Shown here: positions 2,662 to 17,362 of the stretch, piece after piece
How the letters are laid out: each line of letters begins with the position of its first letter
How positions within the stretch are numbered: the first letter of the stretch is position 1
IMG/VR virus record: IMGVR_UViG_3300032770_000036
Location: 1-45,809 of that record
Reading direction: 5' to 3' (one strand)
Length of the DNA: 45,809 bases
Source of the DNA: a virus
Notes under the pieces: generated by a model
Told to the model about the DNA's origin: nothing
Databases searched by the model: none
What the model saw: only the letters and a program-made list of their open reading frames with translations
Made by a program: the position numbers and the translations under genes

Positions 2662-2868
2662 TCAGACGCCGAAGAAGTGGACGACCCCGAGCCGCGTCCA
2701 GCCCAGGAAGCAGGCGACGATCCCGGCCCGCGCGAAGAGGTTGATCAACGAGCGCGGCGGAAAGCGCGCGGCGCGGAAGGCCGACGGCGTCATGAGATAG
2801 ACCCACGCGGGGTAGAGCAGCGTGAGGATGACGAGGGCGAGGAACAGGAGGTCGAGGGCGAGGGCCAT
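2662..2868 (-). CDS. Small membrane protein (68 aa)
   Basis: Track ORF with two hydrophobic stretches (LALDLLFLALVILTLLYPAWVYL and AGIVACFLGW). Confidence 0.55.
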   Translation of the reverse strand: MALALDLLFLALVILTLLYPAWVYLMTPSAFRAARFPPRSLINLFARAGIVACFLGWTRLGVVHFFGV

Positions 2869-3074
2869 CTGTCAGGGGACCGGGTGCGTGGGGGAAAAAT
2901 TGTGCGGGGGATGCTGGAGCGCGCGCGGCCCTCCCGATTTTCGAACCCCGGCGGCCCGCTGGTGCGATTGAGAGGGACCGGGTAGGGGGTCGCGATCGGC
3001 GTCGAGCTGAGCGCGTTCCACTCGGTCTGATCGAACGGATGCAAGCGAGATCAATGGCTTAGCCTCTGTTTCGC

Positions 3075-4793: not shown

Positions 4794-6356
4794 ATGGCGA
4801 TCCTCAACGACCGCGCGCTGATCACGATCAGCGCCGAGAGCCGCGCCCTCATCCGCGCCGCGATCCGCAGAAGCCCGGGCTGGCGCGCCTACGCCCTTGA
4901 GCGCGACGTCGATCTGTCAGACCTGACAGCGCGCGACGCGATCTTCGATTGCTGCGACGCGCTCGGGATCGATATCGCCGCGACGATCGCCGCCGGCGCG
5001 CAAGACGAGCCGCCCCCGCCGCCGAAAAAGCGCGGCTCGAAAGCTGCGCCTGTCATCGCCCGCCGAACCGAATTCGTCTCGACGTGGAAAAACGGCGAGC
5101 TCCCCCGCGACATTCAGCCCTCGCAAATCATCGCCGTGCTCGGGTTCGATCCTGCCCTGCCCGAGCAAGACGACGATGACGACGTCAAGGTCACGATGAA
5201 ATGGGACTTCACGATCGACGGCGAGCCGGCCGCGATTTGGGATTACAAGGGCGCACGCTGGTCGACGTTCGGCTGCGAGCGCATCGCGCATCTGTTCGCG
5301 TCGCCCCAAGCCCCGCAAGCCCCTCCCGCACCCGCTGGGATCGCCTACCAGCGGCCGCCCCCGCCCACGGCCGCCCCCGCCGCTCCCGTCCCGCAGGAAG
5401 CCGCTACACAGCTTCTCAGCCTCATCGCAGGCCTAGCGCCCAAGGCGACGATGGATGCGGCCGCTGTCACGGCGATTGTCGGCCAATTTGTCGAGGAGCG
5501 CGTCGACCCCGCATTCCTGGAATGGGCGACCACGACAAAGGCGCTCATGGGGCGCGTCTCGGCGATCGAGAACCGCGAAGCGCCCGCCATCGTCGTCAAG
5601 CTGCAGCGAGGCGACACCATCGCTCAAATCGAGGGTCATCATCATCCCAAGTTCGCGACCCTGCTTCGCGCGCTCGGCTCGCGCCAGGCGGACGGCTACG
5701 CCCCGAACGTATGGATCGCCGGGCCCGCGGGGTCTGGCAAGACGCATGCGGCCAAGATGGCGGCGAAGGCGATCGGCGTCGCCTGGCATTACAACGGCGC
5801 CCTCAGCATGCCGCATGAGCTCTTGGGCTTCATCGATGCGGCCGGCAAATATCATCGCACGCCGTTCCGCGAGGCCTACGAACACGGCGGCGTGTACCTG
5901 TTTGACGAAGTCGACGGGAGCGACAACTCGGCGTTGCTCGCGCTCAACGCCGCGCTCGCCAACGGGACAGCGACGTTCCCCGACGGCCAGGTCAAGCGAC
6001 ACGTTGACAGCTATATCATTGGGACTGCGAACACTTGGGGCTTGGGCGCGACTGCGGAGTATGTTGGCAGATCCAAGATCGACGCGGCGTTCCTGTCACG
6101 CTTTCCTGTCAGGCTCGCATGGGACTATGATGAGCCGCTTGAGCGCAATATCTCGGGCAATGAGGCTTTCGCGAAGCGCGTTCAGCGCGCTCGCGCCATG
6201 GCGCGCTCGGCCGGCCTCAAAGTTCTCATCGATCCCCGCGCCTCGATCGCCGGCGCGGCGCTGATCGCCAACGGGGCGAGCGAGGCCGAGGCGGCCGAGC
6301 TCACCTATCTCGCCAATCTCACGGCCGAACAGCGCCGCATGGTCGGGGAGGGCTGA
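4794..6356 (+). CDS. AAA+ ATPase (AAA_5/MoxR/CobS-like) with an N-terminal extension and a Pro-rich linker
   Basis: Walker A is GPAGSGKT and Walker B is VYLFDEVD. An arginine-finger-like GRSKIDAAFLSRF follows, and the linker reads QAPQAPPAPAG...PPPPTAAPAAPVP. The start was moved from TTG 4785 to ATG 4794. Confidence 0.75.
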   Translation: MAILNDRALITISAESRALIRAAIRRSPGWRAYALERDVDLSDLTARDAIFDCCDALGIDIAATIAAGAQDEPPPPPKKRGSKAAPVIARRTEFVSTWKNGELPRDIQPSQIIAVLGFDPALPEQDDDDDVKVTMKWDFTIDGEPAAIWDYKGARWSTFGCERIAHLFASPQAPQAPPAPAGIAYQRPPPPTAAPAAPVPQEAATQLLSLIAGLAPKATMDAAAVTAIVGQFVEERVDPAFLEWATTTKALMGRVSAIENREAPAIVVKLQRGDTIAQIEGHHHPKFATLLRALGSRQADGYAPNVWIAGPAGSGKTHAAKMAAKAIGVAWHYNGALSMPHELLGFIDAAGKYHRTPFREAYEHGGVYLFDEVDGSDNSALLALNAALANGTATFPDGQVKRHVDSYIIGTANTWGLGATAEYVGRSKIDAAFLSRFPVRLAWDYDEPLERNISGNEAFAKRVQRARAMARSAGLKVLIDPRASIAGAALIANGASEAEAAELTYLANLTAEQRRMVGEG

Positions 6357-11157: not shown

Positions 11158-11186
11158 TTGAACAGCACGCAAAAGAGTGTTAATCA
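11158..11186 (+). promoter_or_regulatory. Rightward promoter TTGAAC-17-TAATCA with an imperfect operator in the spacer
   Basis: The -35 is at 11158-11163 and the -10 at 11181-11186. The spacer contains CACGCAAAAGAGTG (11166-11179). Confidence 0.5.
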
Positions 11187-11281
11187 TTTCCGAAAATCGC
11201 ATACGAAATAATGGCTTTCGCGTGCAAGGGTGTCACAAATTCTGCATATACCCGCGTTCGATGTTAACAGGAGGGTGTGTT

Positions 11282-11986
11282 ATGACCGACAACAATGGCG
11301 ATGACGGAACCGGCTTCGTGCCAGCCCTCAGGCCGGCGACTACCCTGGCCCCGGACGACCCCCACGGGTTCGACGCGCGGATTAGGGAGCTTGGTCTCAC
11401 GCCGTACAGCTTTGCGATTGAAATCGGGCAGGATCCGCAAAAGCTGTACCGGCTCATCAAACCGACAAAGAGCGGCGCCTACCCGAGATCGGCCGCCTTT
11501 AAAGAGATCGTCAGAGCCCTCGAAGCCCTGGAAAAGGGGAGACTTGGCGGTCGGCGTCATACCCCTACGCGGTTGCCGGGCGCGAAGTTTCGCCATAGCT
11601 CTGCGAAGAGCGAAACGACGGTTTTCTCGACGATGATCGAGCCGGACGGCTCGGTCAAGGTCGCCGAGCACGCCCACGCTTACGCGCGCGTCCCCGCGTC
11701 GCTGGACGAAGTCTCCGGCGTCATCGGCATTATCGTCCGCGACAACGCCATGACGCCGGTCTACCGGCCCGGCGATACGCTGATCCTCAATCCCGCCGGA
11801 GTGCCGCAGCCCGGGAGCGGCGTCGCGCTTCTGCGCGCCGGCGAGCTCATCCTGCGCGAATATGTCGACGAGACGCCGGACAAGTGGATCGTCCGCCGCT
11901 ACGGCCGCGAGCCCGCGGAAGAAACGATCCTGAAACACGCCGGTCAGCGCGCCTACGTCGTCTCAGCGCTCTACCCGGGGCGATAA
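11282..11986 (+). CDS. CI-like repressor: N-terminal HTH plus an S24 (LexA-like) C-terminal domain with a substituted catalytic dyad
   Basis: AGGAGG lies 8 nt upstream of ATG 11282. VRDNAMTPVYRPGD aligns with lambda CI EVEGNSM...GD, and ELILREY aligns with FTFKKL. Confidence 0.7.
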   Translation: MTDNNGDDGTGFVPALRPATTLAPDDPHGFDARIRELGLTPYSFAIEIGQDPQKLYRLIKPTKSGAYPRSAAFKEIVRALEALEKGRLGGRRHTPTRLPGAKFRHSSAKSETTVFSTMIEPDGSVKVAEHAHAYARVPASLDEVSGVIGIIVRDNAMTPVYRPGDTLILNPAGVPQPGSGVALLRAGELILREYVDETPDKWIVRRYGREPAEETILKHAGQRAYVVSALYPGR

Positions 11987-12018
11987 ATGCGCGTCACAGG
12001 GTCAACACGCATTTACGA

Positions 12019-12047
12019 TTGACGTCTATCGCAAAAGCGTGTATTCC
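12019..12047 (+). promoter_or_regulatory. Promoter TTGACG-17-TATTCC with operator ATCGCAAAAGCGTG (12028-12041) in the spacer
   Basis: Direct reading. The operator-in-spacer layout is the same as at the immunity switch. Confidence 0.5.
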
Positions 12048-12080
12048 TTGCTATCGGAACACGAAGCAAGGCGCACGCAA

Positions 12081-12368
12081 ATGCGAGAAGGCGAAGCGGA
12101 GCGGTATTTTCGCGAATTCATCCTCCCCGCTTGCCGGAAGATAGGTGACACGGGCGAGCTCATCGCGGTCCTGCAGGGGCAGGTTGAGGCGTGGGAGCTC
12201 GTCAGGGATCGCGAGCCCGACGCGCCGCGCAAGCTTGCCTATCTTCAGATGACGCTGCTGCTGATCGAGGCCCGGACGCGCAACAGCGTCGAGGCCTTGC
12301 AGCGCGCGATCGACGCCGCGGTCGAGGCCTGCGAGATCGATAAGCTGCGCGCCGAGGGCGTGCTGTGA
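12081..12368 (+). CDS. Hypothetical protein (95 aa; start moved to ATG 12081)
   Basis: Track ORF 12039..12368. The GTG at 12039 lies inside the operator. Confidence 0.5.
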   Translation: MREGEAERYFREFILPACRKIGDTGELIAVLQGQVEAWELVRDREPDAPRKLAYLQMTLLLIEARTRNSVEALQRAIDAAVEACEIDKLRAEGVL

Positions 12369-13261
12369 TCGTGCTCACGCCCCCGGTGGGCGCTCCCGGC
12401 TTCTATGAGATGACCGCGGCGGAATATCACGCCGACCCGTGTCCGATACCGTCGCTGTCCGCCAGCATCGCGAAAAAGCTCTTGCGGCAGACGCCCAAGC
12501 ACGCCTGGGCCGCCCATCCGCGCCTCTGCGCGCAGATCCCGGACGATCCGACGCCCGCCATGCTGTTCGGCTCCGTCGTGCATAAGCTCGTGCTCGGCGC
12601 CGGCGCGCGGATCAAGGTCATCGACGCCGAGGACTATCGCTCGAAAGACGCGCAGCGCGCGCGCGACCTGGCGCTCGCCTCCGGCCGCCTGCCTATCCTG
12701 GCGAAGAAATTCGACGAGGCCGATCTTATCGCCGAGCATGTCAGAACGCGTGTGCAGCGCGCCGCGCCGCGCATGTTCACTGGCAGGCCCGAGCTCGTCG
12801 CCATCTGGCAGGAAGGCGATGTGTGGTGTCGCGCGATGATGGACAGCTACCAGCTCGCCGGCGGCCTCGCCTTGATTGACGACCTGAAGACCAGCGGCCA
12901 GGATATCTCGCCGCTCGGCGTCGGGAAGACGATCGCGAATATGGGCTATGAGATCCAGGCCGCCTTCTACTCGCTGGCGAGCCTGCGCCTCGCGCCAGAC
13001 GCCATGCCGACGTTCCGCTTCGCGTTCGCCGAAACCGAGCCGCCCTACGAGGCGAGCATCGTCGAGCTGACAGGCGCGGCTTTCGAGATCGGCCGCCGCC
13101 AGGTGAGCGCCGCGATCGAGCTGTGGCGGCGTTGCCTGAAGTCCAACGAATGGCCCGGCTATCCCGACACGCCCATACGCGCCGACCTGCCGCCCTGGCA
13201 CGTCGGCTCGTGGGAACAGCGCGAGCAGGACGACCCGCTGCTTGAGGGGGTGAGTTACTGA
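12365..13261 (+). CDS. PD-(D/E)XK exonuclease (RecE/YqaJ-type recombination nuclease)
   Basis: The motifs are ...EYHADP..., LIDDLKTSG and YEIQAAFY (D...DxK...QxxxY pattern). It overlaps the upstream gene by 4 nt. Confidence 0.7.
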   Translation: MIVLTPPVGAPGFYEMTAAEYHADPCPIPSLSASIAKKLLRQTPKHAWAAHPRLCAQIPDDPTPAMLFGSVVHKLVLGAGARIKVIDAEDYRSKDAQRARDLALASGRLPILAKKFDEADLIAEHVRTRVQRAAPRMFTGRPELVAIWQEGDVWCRAMMDSYQLAGGLALIDDLKTSGQDISPLGVGKTIANMGYEIQAAFYSLASLRLAPDAMPTFRFAFAETEPPYEASIVELTGAAFEIGRRQVSAAIELWRRCLKSNEWPGYPDTPIRADLPPWHVGSWEQREQDDPLLEGVSY

Positions 13262-13318
13262 GTTTGAGGAGGGGCTGGCCTGGGTGAGGTCAGGTCAGGT
13301 ATGGTCGGGTGTGGCGCG

Positions 13319-13354
13319 CCTCATCAAATAAGCTTCACGGATTATTTGATGAGG
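13319..13354. repeat. Hairpin 1: CCTCATCAAATAA / TTATTTGATGAGG, 13-bp perfect stem with a 10-nt loop
   Basis: Direct reading. Confidence 0.8.
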
Positions 13355-13403
13355 TTCGGCAGGTGGGGGTCCGGTAGGCCGAGGTAAGGTCGGGCATGGC
13401 GAG

Positions 13404-13443
13404 CTTCATCAAATAATCGTGCTGCGGCGAGTATTTGATGAGG
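13404..13443. repeat. Hairpin 2: CTTCATCAAATA / TATTTGATGAGG, 12-bp stem (one T-G pair) with a 16-nt loop
   Basis: Direct reading. The stem sequence is the same as in hairpin 1 but the loop differs. Confidence 0.8.
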
Positions 13444-13576
13444 CCCGCCTCGGTGCGGCATGGCTTGGCGAGGTCGGGTACGGTGTGGTTCGGTGAGCAA
13501 TGGTCAGGCGCGGCACGGGCCGCCTCGGTCTGGCGAGGTATGGCAACTAATTTGGTCTTAGCAAGGGGATGAGAGA

Positions 13577-14191
13577 ATGACAAAGCATGTGAAGAGCGAA
13601 CAAGTCACCAATGGGGCGAGGGATGCGGTTGAAGCTGGTATCCCATATGTGGTTTCGGTCACGATCGAGGGGAGCGCGGACATCTTGTTTCATCGCTGGA
13701 ACAACGAAGCCGTCGCCGCCAAGGCGGCCGCGAAAAAGGGCTCCGCGGAAAAGAAGACGGACAATGTCGAGACCTTCGTCTATCGAGACGAGAGGGGTCA
13801 AATCGCATTGCCTGGCGAGTATCTTCGGCAATCGATCATCAACGCGGCGAAGTTCAAGCAAGACCCGCGCTCTCCACGCAAAAGTGCGATGGACCTCTAC
13901 AAGGCCGGGGTTATCGCGCTTACGCCACTTGCGAGTTTCGGCAAAGAGAAGTGGGATTACGAAGACCGCCGAAGGGTGACAGTCCAGCGCGCCGGCGTCA
14001 CCCGCGTTCGACCGGCCATGACCAAGGGCTGGAAACTGACGTTCGATTTTCTCGTCAATCTTCCTGAGTACATAGACGCGAACGATCTGCGAGAAACGAT
14101 CGAGAGCGCCGGCAAGCTTGTAGGTCTAGGCGACTTCAGGCCGACCTACGGGCGGTTCGGGATCGTGTCGTTTGCGGCACGACTGCCTTAG
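13577..14191 (+). CDS. Unknown protein (204 aa) between the exonuclease and the ATPase
   Basis: Track ORF with AAGGGGA 8 nt upstream of the ATG and high GC3. I recognise no family. Confidence 0.65.
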   Translation: MTKHVKSEQVTNGARDAVEAGIPYVVSVTIEGSADILFHRWNNEAVAAKAAAKKGSAEKKTDNVETFVYRDERGQIALPGEYLRQSIINAAKFKQDPRSPRKSAMDLYKAGVIALTPLASFGKEKWDYEDRRRVTVQRAGVTRVRPAMTKGWKLTFDFLVNLPEYIDANDLRETIESAGKLVGLGDFRPTYGRFGIVSFAARLP

Positions 14192-14209
14192 TTTCCTCTG
14201 CCTCGCCGC

Positions 14210-14289
14210 GGTAGGGTTCGCAGCGGTTCGCCGCGGTATGGTCCGGTATGGCCGGGTCGCGTGAGGTAAGGTGTGGTCCGCTGTGGTTA
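14210..14289 (+). repeat. Second 5-nt-phased GGTNN tract (16 pentamers, 12 starting with GG)
   Basis: Direct reading gives ggtag ggttc gcagc ggttc gccgc ggtat ggtcc ggtat ggccg ggtcg cgtga ggtaa ggtgt ggtcc gctgt ggtta. Confidence 0.8.
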
Positions 14290-14309
14290 TATTATTTGGA
14301 GCTAAGGAA

Positions 14310-15263
14310 GTGACAACATTCCGCCCCGCCAACGAGATCCGCGATCGCATCGGCGTGTTCGTCGCGCTGACAGGCACAGCGAACTCCGGCAAGACCTACA
14401 GTGCGCTGGCGCTCGCCCGCGGGATCGCGGGGCCGGGCGGGAAGATCGCCGTCGTCGACACCGAGGGCGGTCGCACGCTGCACCTGAAAGAGCAGTTCAA
14501 ATTCGAGGCCCTCGTCATCGGGCCGCCGTTCAGGCCCGATCGGTTCAGTGAGCTCGCGCAGACCGCGGAGCAGGAAGGCTACGCGTGTTTGCTGATTGAC
14601 AGCTTCAGTCAGGAATGGGTCGGGATCGGCGGCGTGCTGTCATGGCACGAAGAAGAGCTGTCACGCATGGCGGGCGACGACTACGCCAAGCGCGAGCGCG
14701 TGAAGATGGCGGCCTGGATCAGGCCCAAGAGCGCGCACAAAGCGATGGTCAACAGCTTCCTGCAGCGCAGGATCCCGATCATCTTCGCGATCCGCGGCGA
14801 AGAGAGCGTCAAGCCTGCGGAAGCGGGCGGGAAGCCGCAAAAGATCTACAAGAGCCTCACGAACAAGGATTTCCCTTTCGAGATGACGGTCGCCTTCCGG
14901 CTCGACCCCGCGCGCAAGGGCTACATCGATCTGTCAGACCCCGCGACCTGGAAGATGGAAGGCGCGCATCAGGCCATCTTCAAGGACGGCGATCGGCTGG
15001 CGCCGGAGCACGGCCAGCGCCTCGGCGCGTGGGCGGCGAACTTGTCGCTGAGCGACGCCGCGCCGGCGTCGCCTATGGGCCGCGATCTCCTGACCGAAGG
15101 CTTCGAGGCCGCCTCGCGCGGCTCTGACACGCTGCGATCGTTCTGGGGCAGGCTGAGCGCCTCAGAGAAGCACGCCGCCGGCGGCGCGAACAAGCTGGCC
15201 GAGTGGAAGGACATCGCGTTCAAGGCCGACGCCGAGATCGCGTCGGAAGAGGGAGCGAGCTGA
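14310..15263 (+). CDS. RecA-fold P-loop ATPase (Sak4/AAA_24-like recombination ATPase)
   Basis: Walker A is LTGTANSGKT and Walker B-like is ACLLIDSF. The GTG at 14310 is preceded by AAGGAA; the track start at 14271 lies inside the repeat tract. Confidence 0.6.
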   Translation: MTTFRPANEIRDRIGVFVALTGTANSGKTYSALALARGIAGPGGKIAVVDTEGGRTLHLKEQFKFEALVIGPPFRPDRFSELAQTAEQEGYACLLIDSFSQEWVGIGGVLSWHEEELSRMAGDDYAKRERVKMAAWIRPKSAHKAMVNSFLQRRIPIIFAIRGEESVKPAEAGGKPQKIYKSLTNKDFPFEMTVAFRLDPARKGYIDLSDPATWKMEGAHQAIFKDGDRLAPEHGQRLGAWAANLSLSDAAPASPMGRDLLTEGFEAASRGSDTLRSFWGRLSASEKHAAGGANKLAEWKDIAFKADAEIASEEGAS

Positions 15264-15264
15264 C

Positions 15265-15612
15265 ATGGGCGAGGCGAAGATCAAGGCGGCGCAGCGCGCC
15301 GCGGCGGGCGGCCCTATGCCGACGCCGGAGGAGTTCAAGGCGATGGAAGCGCTGTCCGCGCGCTTCGCCGAGGCGCTGTGGCGCGAGGGAATGGCGCTCG
15401 CCGGCCCGAGCCCGCACTTCATGGCGCGGATGCTGGCGTTCGTCACCGCCGGCCGCGTGATCGCGGAGGCGGGGAAACAGCTTCACGAGCGGCCGGAGGC
15501 GACGCAAGAGGCCGCGGCGCTCGGCATGCGCCAGGCTGTCATCATCGCGCAGCGCCAGGCCTTCGTCGAAGAAGGGCGGCGGCTGGCGGCCGCGGGGGAG
15601 CGGCGGCAGTGA
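15265..15612 (+). CDS. Hypothetical protein (115 aa)
   Basis: Track ORF starting 2 nt after the ATPase stop. Confidence 0.55.
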   Translation: MGEAKIKAAQRAAAGGPMPTPEEFKAMEALSARFAEALWREGMALAGPSPHFMARMLAFVTAGRVIAEAGKQLHERPEATQEAAALGMRQAVIIAQRQAFVEEGRRLAAAGERRQ

Positions 15613-15929: not shown

Positions 15930-16199
15930 ATGCCCCGCCGCCCGCTGCCTCTCCTCATCGACAGCTTGCCTCTCTACGCGACGAAGGGGCAGATTATGGG
16001 CGCGATCACCGCCAGCACGCACGGGCAGTCGAACTTGCGGAGCCTGTTCTCCGCCGCCGGCTTCCCGAAGCCGAACGCCTTCATGGACGGCTACTATGTG
16101 CCGGCGGTCATCGCCTTCATCGAGAAGTTTGAAGCCGATCGTTCTGGTTCTTTGTTGGGGAGTAAGTCATGGGGCGAAACATCGAGGCGCCCGGCCTAA
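15930..16199 (+). CDS. xis: Excisionase/AlpA-like DNA-binding protein (89 aa)
   Basis: It lies immediately upstream of the integrase and overlaps it. AAGFPKPNAFMDGYYVPAVIAFIEK resembles the AlpA/Xis motif FP.P....W....V..W. Confidence 0.4.
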   Translation: MPRRPLPLLIDSLPLYATKGQIMGAITASTHGQSNLRSLFSAAGFPKPNAFMDGYYVPAVIAFIEKFEADRSGSLLGSKSWGETSRRPA

Positions 16200-17362
16200 G
16201 GTGGCGCTCGCGCGCGAGCGGCGCGCGGATCCCGGTCTGGATCGCGAGCAACGAAGCGGCCATGCGTGGCTACCCCGTCAAGACCGTGAACCTGACGGGC
16301 CTGACGGACCGCGAGATCGTCGCGCGCTGCCACGCGCTGCAGGCCGAAATGAAGGCCTGGGTCGGCGGCCGACCCCAGGATGCCTACGACGGGACGCTGG
16401 GCTCGCTGATCAGGATCTACCAGACGCACGAGGAAAGCGGCTACCAGCGGCTCAAGCCGTCGAGCCGCATTCCCTACGATGTCTATCTCCGTCGCATCCA
16501 CGAGGTCTATGGGCGGGCCAAAATCGAGCGCCTGACAGGCTTGGACCTCCGGGCGTGGCACAAGGACATGCGCGCGCCCGACGCCGCCGGCGGCCGCGAG
16601 AAGCTCGGCGCGGCGGAAATGGGGATCTCGGTCCTCAAGGCGGTCTTTTCCTTCGGGCTCGTCGCGGGCATTCGAGAGTGCGAGCATATCGTCGCCGTTG
16701 CGCGCGAGCTGCGCCTGCCAGGCCCAAAGGCGCGCGACGTCGCGCCCACGGCGGATGAGGTCGAACTGGCGCGCGCGGCCGCGCACCGCCTCGGCCATCC
16801 CCGCGCCGCTCTCGCCTACGCGCTGCAATTCGAGACGATGGCCCGGCAATGGGATATCATCGGCCAATGGGTTCCGCTCGACGACCCGAGGCCGTCGGCG
16901 GTCATTCGCGGGCGCTTGAAGTGGATCGGGCCGACCTGGGCGGCGATCGACGAACGCGGCGTTCTCAAGATCAAGCCGACCAAGACGGAGGGCTCGACCG
17001 GCGCGACGATCCACGTCGATCTGTCAGGCTGTCAGATGGTCATGGCGGAGCTGGCGCAGATCCCCGGAGCCGAACGCGTCGGGCCGCTGGTCACGTTCGA
17101 GGGCGCGCCGTATCCCAAGAACGCCTTCGATCGGCTTTGGCGGCGCGTGCGCAAGGGCGCCGGGCTCCCCGATGGAATGTGGAACCGCGACTTGCGCGCC
17201 GGCGGCGTGACAGAAGCGCAGATCGCCGGCGCCAGCGCGGAGGATCGCGCGAAGCTGGCGGGCCACAGCAAGCGCGTCAACGAGCAGGTTTATGCGCGCG
17301 ACCGCCTCGCCGCGAGCGGGCGTGTGGTCGAGCTGCGGGCGAAACTGAGGAGTGAGAAATGA
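16169..17362 (+). CDS. int: Tyrosine integrase
   Basis: The protein is 397 aa. The C-terminal catalytic region reads ...RDLRAGGVTEA...LAGHSKRVNEQVYARD (R...HxxR-like...H...Y pattern). Confidence 0.8.
   Translation: MGRNIEAPGLRWRSRASGARIPVWIASNEAAMRGYPVKTVNLTGLTDREIVARCHALQAEMKAWVGGRPQDAYDGTLGSLIRIYQTHEESGYQRLKPSSRIPYDVYLRRIHEVYGRAKIERLTGLDLRAWHKDMRAPDAAGGREKLGAAEMGISVLKAVFSFGLVAGIRECEHIVAVARELRLPGPKARDVAPTADEVELARAAAHRLGHPRAALAYALQFETMARQWDIIGQWVPLDDPRPSAVIRGRLKWIGPTWAAIDERGVLKIKPTKTEGSTGATIHVDLSGCQMVMAELAQIPGAERVGPLVTFEGAPYPKNAFDRLWRRVRKGAGLPDGMWNRDLRAGGVTEAQIAGASAEDRAKLAGHSKRVNEQVYARDRLAASGRVVELRAKLRSEK

Follow-up and report, generated by a model that had tools for sequence, protein, structure and literature searches.

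Phased GGYNN tracts on both sides of a vipr gene in a soil phage: a probable VIPR guide-RNA locus

A phage locus with two repeat-filled gaps

The DNA studied here (the window, a whole stretch of ~45.8 kb) looks like the genome of a complete temperate phage. It carries an integrase gene (16169-17362), an S24 repressor-like gene (11177-11986), a gene for a RecE-like DUF3799 exonuclease, and head, portal, terminase and tail genes, with the structural genes on the minus strand. The same phage, with an identical Vipr protein and flanking tracts, is present in four further metagenome assemblies, including two contigs of ~45.7-45.8 kb. Soil metagenomes in which it occurs are JGI 3300032954, SRR8881745, ERZ27256474 and ERZ27256576. 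The locus of interest sits inside the recombination module, which comprises the DUF3799 exonuclease and a Sak4-like ATPase.

[quoted passage not shown] In these systems, Vipr, a RAMP-like protein of ~20 kDa, works with vrRNAs of ~100 nt, each composed of 9-16 YNNGG (GGY/NN) repeats that a 3' tail follows. Genes for the vrRNAs lie in the intergenic stretches beside vipr, and most such loci belong to phages or prophages (bioRxiv 10.64898/2026.04.26.720920). A phage with an integrase and a repressor-like gene is the usual home of a VIPR system, and the setting was therefore counted in favor of the vrRNA reading. The features of the locus are as follows.

13268-13317, plus strand: tract A, repeat tract of a putative vrRNA; 10 units, 9 of them GG-initial
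13318-13355, plus strand: hairpin 1; 14-pair outer stem (CCUCAUCAAAUA/UAUUUGAUGAGG) with ~10 nt enclosed; dG -18.6 kcal/mol, z -6.1
13353-13402, plus strand: tract B, repeat tract of a putative vrRNA; 10 units, 8 of them GG-initial; holds GAGGTAAGGT at 13381
13403-13444, plus strand: hairpin 2; stem sequence of hairpin 1 with a different loop; dG -22.5 kcal/mol, z -5.6
13452-13546, plus strand: tract C, putative vrRNA tract; 19 units, 17 of them GG-initial, in a single register; ends 30 nt before the vipr ATG
13577-14191, plus strand: vipr gene; 204-aa Cas7-like RAMP protein, predicted to bind the GGY motif
14210-14289, plus strand: tract D, repeat tract of a putative vrRNA; 16 GGYNN units, 12 of them canonical, recognized by periodicity and its statistics
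14290-14309, plus strand: U-rich stretch after tract D, TATTATTTGG; possible unstructured 3' tail, overlapping the ribosome-binding region of the ATPase (GGAG, 14298-14301)
14310-15263, plus strand: neighboring ATPase; phrog_1366, Sak4-like, with weak AAA_24/AAA_25 matches; true start at GTG 14310, 317 aa

All four tracts (D with 16 units, A and B with 10 each, C with 19) exceed the minimum of 4 repeats set for a VIPR tract and lie on the plus strand, and no others are found in the window. The initial annotation had seen in tract D a return of the architecture of the upstream gap (13262-13576), and phased tracts are indeed present there too.

Phased repeats, their ends and the start of the ATPase

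Tract D begins 18 nt past the vipr stop codon and ends 20 nt short of GTG 14310. Read from 14210, its pentamers are GGTAG GGTTC GCAGC GGTTC GCCGC GGTAT GGTCC GGTAT, continuing to 14289 with GGCCG GGTCG CGTGA GGTAA GGTGT GGTCC GCTGT GGTTA. On this re-reading the counts first given for the tract hold: 16 in-register pentamers, 12 beginning with GG and 11 with GGT. The other four units (GCAGC, GCCGC, CGTGA and GCTGT) are degenerate, and an extra in-register degenerate unit, GCCGC, stands just ahead of the tract at 14205-14209. The remaining four registers of the same 80 nt hold 0, 0, 0 and 2 GG. The stop codon of vipr (TAG, 14189-14191) and a GTG at 14271, inside the tract, are where the annotation had put them, and GAGGTAAGGT, said to be shared with 13381, is present at 13381 and at 14263. 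One detail has to be corrected. The word GGTATGG(T/C)CCGG was reported to occur twice and is found once, at 14235; the copy at 14245 is GGTATGGCCGGG, and the part common to both is only GGTATGG[T/C]C.

The periodicity statistics proposed with the initial annotation were run, and the phasing is significant. GG accounts for 0.082 and GGT for 0.014 of the positions in the window (GC 66.5%). At these base rates, the binomial probability of at least 12 GG in 16 units is 1.2e-10, or 1e-5 once multiplied by all positions on both strands, and that of at least 11 GGT in 16 is 1.9e-17. In 20,000 shuffles of tract D, the best register never exceeded 9 GG. Outside the two gaps flanking vipr, the best 16-unit score is 7 GG and 4 GGT on the plus strand and 9 and 3 on the minus strand. 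When the whole window was scanned for phased GG, the plus strand returned only 13263-13551 and 14210-14289. A minus-strand match at 5347-5396 was set aside as G-rich coding sequence with no GGYNN tract.

The upstream gap is divided by a pair of AT-rich hairpins, which partition tracts A, B and C and could serve as a 3' tail or as a processing signal. The last GG of hairpin 1 is also where tract B starts, and the hairpin is a candidate for the 3' tail of vrRNA A or for an element that directs the processing of this RNA. Both hairpins are less stable when folded from the minus strand (-16.1 kcal/mol for hairpin 1 and -17.0 kcal/mol for hairpin 2), because the G.U pair, which in hairpin 2 exists only in plus-strand RNA, turns into a mismatch. 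The hairpin motif, TCATCAAATA, was absent from all other fetched loci. Tract D has no significant RNA structure of its own (z -0.5), and folding of the sequence after it gave no hairpin (z 0.0), only TATTATTTGG; tract C likewise has TATTATTTGG as its tail, without significant structure. The motif TATTTG[AG] occurs seven times in the window, three of them directly 3' of tracts A, B and D.

Tract C is probably two abutting vrRNAs, C1 at 13452-13501 (ending GGTGA GCAAT) and C2 at 13502-13546. Degenerate GC[AT]NN units often follow directly after GGYRA, the example in the window being GGTGA GCAAT at 13492-13501, and such junctions recur in the long tracts of relatives (loci L001, L005, L012, L014 and L020). 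These sites may mark the joins of abutting vrRNAs, the "staggered arrays" of the published description. A second junction is more regular. All four tracts of the window end in G[GC]YRT-GG (GGTGT GG at 13308-13317, GGCAT GG at 13393-13402, GGTAT GG at 13537-13546 and GCTGT GG at 14280-14289), the same 3' junction as in the four vrRNAs of Escherichia phage SUSP1, and the last NN (AT or GT) therefore appears conserved and not free to vary. The 10-mer CCGCCTCGGT occurs twice inside tract C (13446-13455 and 13521-13530), and GCCTCG stands just ahead of tract D (14200-14205). CGCCTC also starts hairpin 1. It could be a leader or processing motif or a coincidence, since the window holds 36 copies of CGCCTC.

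Tracts that precede a gene are followed by a U-rich stretch, then a Shine-Dalgarno sequence and a start codon, both in the window (13547-13576 and 14290-14309) and in relatives (L003, L008, L012, L013, L014 and L017). Several relatives read GGTTTTT(N)TTAAC..GAGG..ATG between tract and vipr. The arrangement suggests that such tracts are transcribed together with the gene that follows and that binding by Vipr may influence translation of this gene. A scan of 11900-15400 for sigma-70-like promoters and terminators found none on the plus strand near the tracts. A search of the whole window against Rfam had no match at the gathering threshold, and at E<=10 over 13150-14400 the only matches were spurious ones to miRNA and lncRNA families; a search of the window for tRNA and tmRNA genes was negative. 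In a published VIPR variant, hammerhead ribozymes are interspersed among the vrRNAs; here Rfam matched no ribozyme in 13150-14400, whether the cutoff was the gathering threshold or E<=10. The UGAUGAG present in a hairpin arm just complements the opposite arm.

Where the ATPase begins decides whether tract D is translated. The initial annotation had placed the tract outside the coding sequence, a view that a start at GTG 14271 would contradict. Four lines of evidence agree that the ATPase starts at GTG 14310, which leaves tract D untranslated. The phrog_1366 profile match begins only at residue 21 of the long open reading frame that starts at GTG 14271. The equivalent of the 317-aa product from 14310 is the one called in four other, independent assemblies of this phage. 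The homologue in Microcystis phage Mwe-JY08 (68% identical) starts five residues before a shared TFRP motif. Finally, a GGAG at 14298-14301, 9 nt past the end of tract D, lies 8 nt upstream of GTG 14310 as its Shine-Dalgarno sequence.

The 204-residue protein and its relatives

By sequence comparison, the product of the 204-aa gene is a Vipr protein. A profile built from 40 family members matched the PDB entry 36pp_D, "SUSP1 Vipr protein," over residues 28-196 with an E-value of 6.4e-11, and this was the sole solved structure matched; pairwise BLASTP against SUSP1 Vipr gave 27% identity and an E-value of 2e-11. The AlphaFold2 model of the protein (pLDDT 88, pTM 0.80) has its best Foldseek matches in the PDB among Csm3, type VII Cas7 and Cas7-11, at E ~1e-6, a probability of 1.0 and a TM score of ~0.5. 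The RAMP fold of Vipr proteins consists of an RRM, a G-loop and a thumb. In SUSP1 Vipr, the residues touching G1, G2 and Y3 are H17, R138, D177, W178, R179 and E71 (bioRxiv 10.64898/2026.04.26.720927). They align here with H39, R145, D186, F187, R188 and E81. Each of these is either invariant or conserved to at least 90% among the 40 family members, and F187 keeps the aromatic character. M72 of SUSP1 aligns with Y82, and K33 with a position that is not conserved.

The protein belongs to phrog_4652, of "unknown function," and searches of Pfam and NCBIfam with it returned no match. Its family is large and well conserved, with 6,905 homologues at E<=1e-3; the nearest are 60-75% identical, and those named by their source are all "hypothetical." With a family this large and no Pfam or NCBIfam match, many loci are annotated as hypothetical or wrongly, as in phage DSL-LC04. 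In this complete phage genome (L063, OR003939.1, 22429-23046), a Vipr homologue 62% identical to the present one is annotated as a "helix-turn-helix transcriptional regulator," and the gap upstream of it, which is unannotated, holds GGYNN tracts.

The link between the gene and the tracts holds across the family. It was examined in 25 distinct loci: 22 IMG/VR loci (20 of them distinct), DSL-LC04, three closer metagenomic relatives and the window. Phased-GG tracts adjoin the vipr homologue in all 25, nearly always on the same strand and at a GC content from 41 to 68%. In the IMG/VR set, where the homologue is 55-68% identical, tracts lie on the strand of the gene in 22 of 22, and two loci have minus-strand tracts in addition. 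The unit logo, drawn from 904 units in 21 loci, reads G, G, Y (90%; T 52%, C 38%), N, N, with 0.01 bit at each of positions 4 and 5. A fixed GGY with a free NN is the published GGY/NN code, and the tracts thus fit vrRNAs. The only gene common to all 25 loci is vipr. A PD-(D/E)XK nuclease is found beside it in three of them, the window included, and the ATPase of the window in none of the others. With only vipr in common, the flanking exonuclease and ATPase are not conserved partners. The view that the gene makes up a single unit with the tracts on its two sides is borne out.

As a positive control, the same scan was applied to the SUSP1 locus, where it found one tract upstream and three downstream, the published number and layout of vrRNAs. 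These four tracts hold 0-5 degenerate units each, a range that includes the 4 of 16 in tract D. A search of the window and the loci of its clade for a vap1 homologue found none.

Individual relatives show some variety. In L005 (1976-2840 and 3597-3690), every tract comes with a promoter-like sequence of the TTGACA type and a terminator of its own, the latter formed by GGGGAGGCGAAAGCCTCCCC and a T-run; the vrRNAs of this locus look like independent transcription units, in contrast to those of the window. In L012, L013 and L015, a conserved double hairpin stands behind the tracts. It is composed of GCTGCTATGCAGC and another stem, variable in sequence with apparent compensatory changes, and forms a clade-specific structured tail. 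In L022, a strong phased-GG tract (2744-2888, minus strand) lies opposite the vipr strand, just upstream of the gene.

Guide RNAs, alternatives and wider meaning

It is very probable that 14210-14289 is the repeat (guide) region of a plus-strand vrRNA in a compact VIPR locus of a temperate phage. The locus, a new example of the kind first described in the 2026 preprints, comprises the vipr gene together with some five vrRNA tracts, of which three or four lie upstream (13268-13546) and one downstream. Tract D, with 16 units, is inside the published range of 9-16, and its 80 nt plus a tail fit the reported transcripts of ~100 nt. By analogy with SUSP1, the tracts are most likely genes for trans-acting guide RNAs bound by the 204-aa Vipr. 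The initial annotation had favored coupled regulation or a cis-acting DNA site used by the flanking exonuclease and ATPase. The evidence favors trans-acting guides instead, as the flanking genes are not shared among the 25 loci.

How such a guide might work can be proposed from the published system. There, one protomer sits on each repeat, GGY is sequestered, and NN pairs with dsDNA, every third target base being skipped; the outcome is transcriptional silencing of competing phages (bioRxiv 10.64898/2026.04.26.720927). If the phage of the window follows SUSP1, Vipr protomers would polymerize along the vrRNA, one per pentamer, each sequestering a GGY trinucleotide and presenting the two variable bases. 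The string of NN would then pair with a dsDNA target of the form NNxNNx..., skipping every third base, and the binding would silence transcription in a competing phage or prophage. With no recognizable plus-strand promoter, terminator or ribozyme, the RNAs would have to be cut from an operon transcript. We infer that the tract is transcribed and processed, that a ribonucleoprotein forms, that DNA is targeted and what the target would be, and the mechanism is carried over from a homologue of 27% identity described only in preprints.

Read as a guide, the NN string of tract D (AG TC GC TC GC AT CC AT CG CG GA AA GT CC GT TA) predicts, with a 1-nt skip, the target AGxTCxGCxTCxGCxATxCCxATxCGxCGxGAxAAxGTxCCxGTxTA. 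Searches within the window for self-targets gave best matches no better than those of shuffled controls; the VIPR preprint likewise reports that its own systems have no self-target (bioRxiv 10.64898/2026.04.26.720920). The guides of relatives showed no excess over shuffles when compared with the window, and an all-against-all scan of the fetched loci at skips of 0-3 found strong matches only to loci that the seeds used here had brought in. Sequence collections were searched for exact patterns with seeds of 8-10 units. For tract D, units 1-10, 6-15 and 6-13 gave 0, 0 and 10 matches in viral contigs, and units 1-10 gave 13 matches in the metagenome and 13 in the genome collection. These matches lay in unrelated taxa, and none extended past the seed; the best reached 26 of 34, which is at chance level and below the published target threshold of at least 80% NN match (bioRxiv 10.64898/2026.04.26.720920). 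C1 and C2 seeds had no matches. Tracts A and B had one each, as many as chance would give, the contigs having 44% and 53% GC. In the tract A match, which is in coding sequence, the skip base does not fall on the wobble position, and the tract B match lies in no convincing coding sequence.

Other explanations have to be weighed against the guide-RNA reading, and the one with the most in its favor concerns a function in cis. Tract D could be mainly an element bound by Vipr to control translation or processing of the ATPase, as tract C would be for vipr, or it could be a decaying vrRNA that has lost its role as a guide. Tract D does abut a ribosome-binding site (GGAG 14298, GTG 14310), tract C stops 30 nt from the vipr ATG, and the gene-preceding tracts of many relatives run into a U-rich stretch, a Shine-Dalgarno sequence and an ATG. 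Tract D also has no promoter, terminator or hairpin tail of its own, 4 of its 16 units are degenerate, and no target was found. However, the SUSP1 vrRNA tracts are equally rich in degenerate units, and the conserved G[GC]YRT-GG junction is intact at the 3' end of tract D. The next downstream gene differs among the loci, which means that what is conserved cannot be the control of one particular gene, and control in cis would supplement guiding rather than replace it. Either form of this explanation is decidedly unlikely as the main one, and Vipr binding may still have a secondary effect in cis on translation of the ATPase. The position of the tracts in a recombination module, together with the PD-(D/E)XK nuclease that adjoins vipr in two further loci, suggests instead dsDNA or ssDNA sites (iterons, a recombination hot spot or a loading site) for the exonuclease and the ATPase. 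This is very unlikely, as 22 of the 25 loci have neither protein and yet keep their tracts with vipr. Fixed GGY with variable NN, a preference for one strand and the conserved residues that read GGY in an RNA-binding RAMP protein all fit an RNA guide. For the homologous tracts of SUSP1, expression and co-purification with Vipr in the form of RNA have been reported (bioRxiv 10.64898/2026.04.26.720920).

Two more explanations were considered. An open frame does run from GTG 14271 into the ATPase, and the tract could be translated as an N-terminal extension of that protein. The frame would cover at most the last 19 bases of tract D, and the profile match from residue 21, the four assemblies, the Mwe-JY08 homologue and the GGAG all favor 14310, which makes translation extremely improbable. 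Finally, a G-rich microsatellite that arose by chance or slippage, without function, has little but the repetitive look of the sequence to recommend it, and there is next to no likelihood that it is correct. The probabilities of ~1e-10 to 1e-17, units that are not identical and form no simple repeat, and comparative data that place the same architecture beside every homologue examined, at 41-68% GC, contradict it. On these same grounds, the earlier argument that the tracts are nonrandom and functional, and no microsatellite, is upheld.

The closest known system to the guide-RNA locus proposed here is that of SUSP1, which is type II among VIPR types I-VII. Both have a phage-encoded RAMP-fold protein of ~200 aa with a conserved H, R, D, aromatic residue and R reading GGY, tandem GGYNN repeats on both sides of the gene and on its strand with a hypervariable NN, and the G[GC]YRT-GG junction at the 3' end. 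The differences are a protein identity of only 27% and a window locus without vap1 or any conserved accessory gene; the vap accessory gene is typical of VIPR systems and not universal, and stand-alone vipr genes also occur (bioRxiv 10.64898/2026.04.26.720920). SUSP1 vrRNAs have a pseudoknot tail, whereas in the window two tracts are followed by the AT-rich 14-pair hairpin and tract D by a U-rich stretch. In addition, no individual promoters can be recognized in the window, tract D runs up to the ribosome-binding site of the next gene, and the phage is a high-GC, temperate one from soil.

VIPR has been described as phage-borne, PAM-free, RNA-guided DNA binding that uses a gapped 2-of-5 code, and it has been put forward as a possible ancestor of the RAMP proteins of CRISPR. 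The class 1 CRISPR Cas7 proteins on crRNA (Csm3, Cmr4 and type VII Cas7) share the fold of the 204-aa protein, as the Foldseek matches indicate; in both, one RAMP protomer occupies each fixed step of the guide RNA, and a thumb flips out bases periodically. The step is 5 nt with three bases sequestered in VIPR and 6 nt with one base flipped in class 1 Cas7. A vrRNA embeds its gapped code in the repeats and reads the target with a 1-nt skip, whereas a CRISPR guide is a contiguous spacer. The window holds only 5-nt units; a search for a CRISPR array (25-40-nt direct repeats), cas1/cas2 and other cas genes found none, and the genes around the locus encode an exonuclease, an ATPase and an integrase. 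Another protein that reads phased motifs is TRAP, the trp RNA-binding attenuation protein, which binds (G/U)AG triplets as a closed 11-mer ring and acts in cis on one leader. TRAP, too, is an oligomer reading a short motif about every 5 nt on one RNA strand with nonconserved spacers between; its fold is unrelated, and its spacers carry no information, whereas those of vrRNAs are the guide. TRAP-like RNA binding, CsrA sponges, two-tetrad G-quadruplexes, Chi-like sites, iterons and telomere-like repeats were all considered for the tracts and dropped in view of the homology to Vipr.

The locus adds a clean and probably complete example of VIPR from a high-GC temperate soil phage, in which vipr stands alone with some five guides; a hairpin that separates two of the guides was not seen in the other fetched loci. 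A simple scan for phased GG recognizes the VIPR signature in raw sequence, and it also recovered the published layout of SUSP1. For tract D itself, the gains are a corrected start of the ATPase and a predicted target string that can be tested. One could also consider a bolder proposal, which is unlikely: that the clade represents a vap-less variant of VIPR, in which the tracts lie inside an early or recombination operon transcript, are released by hairpins or host RNases, and also act in cis as Vipr sites that gate the translation of vipr and the Sak4-like ATPase. If this were true, a guide-RNA gene would double as an autoregulatory operator on mRNA.
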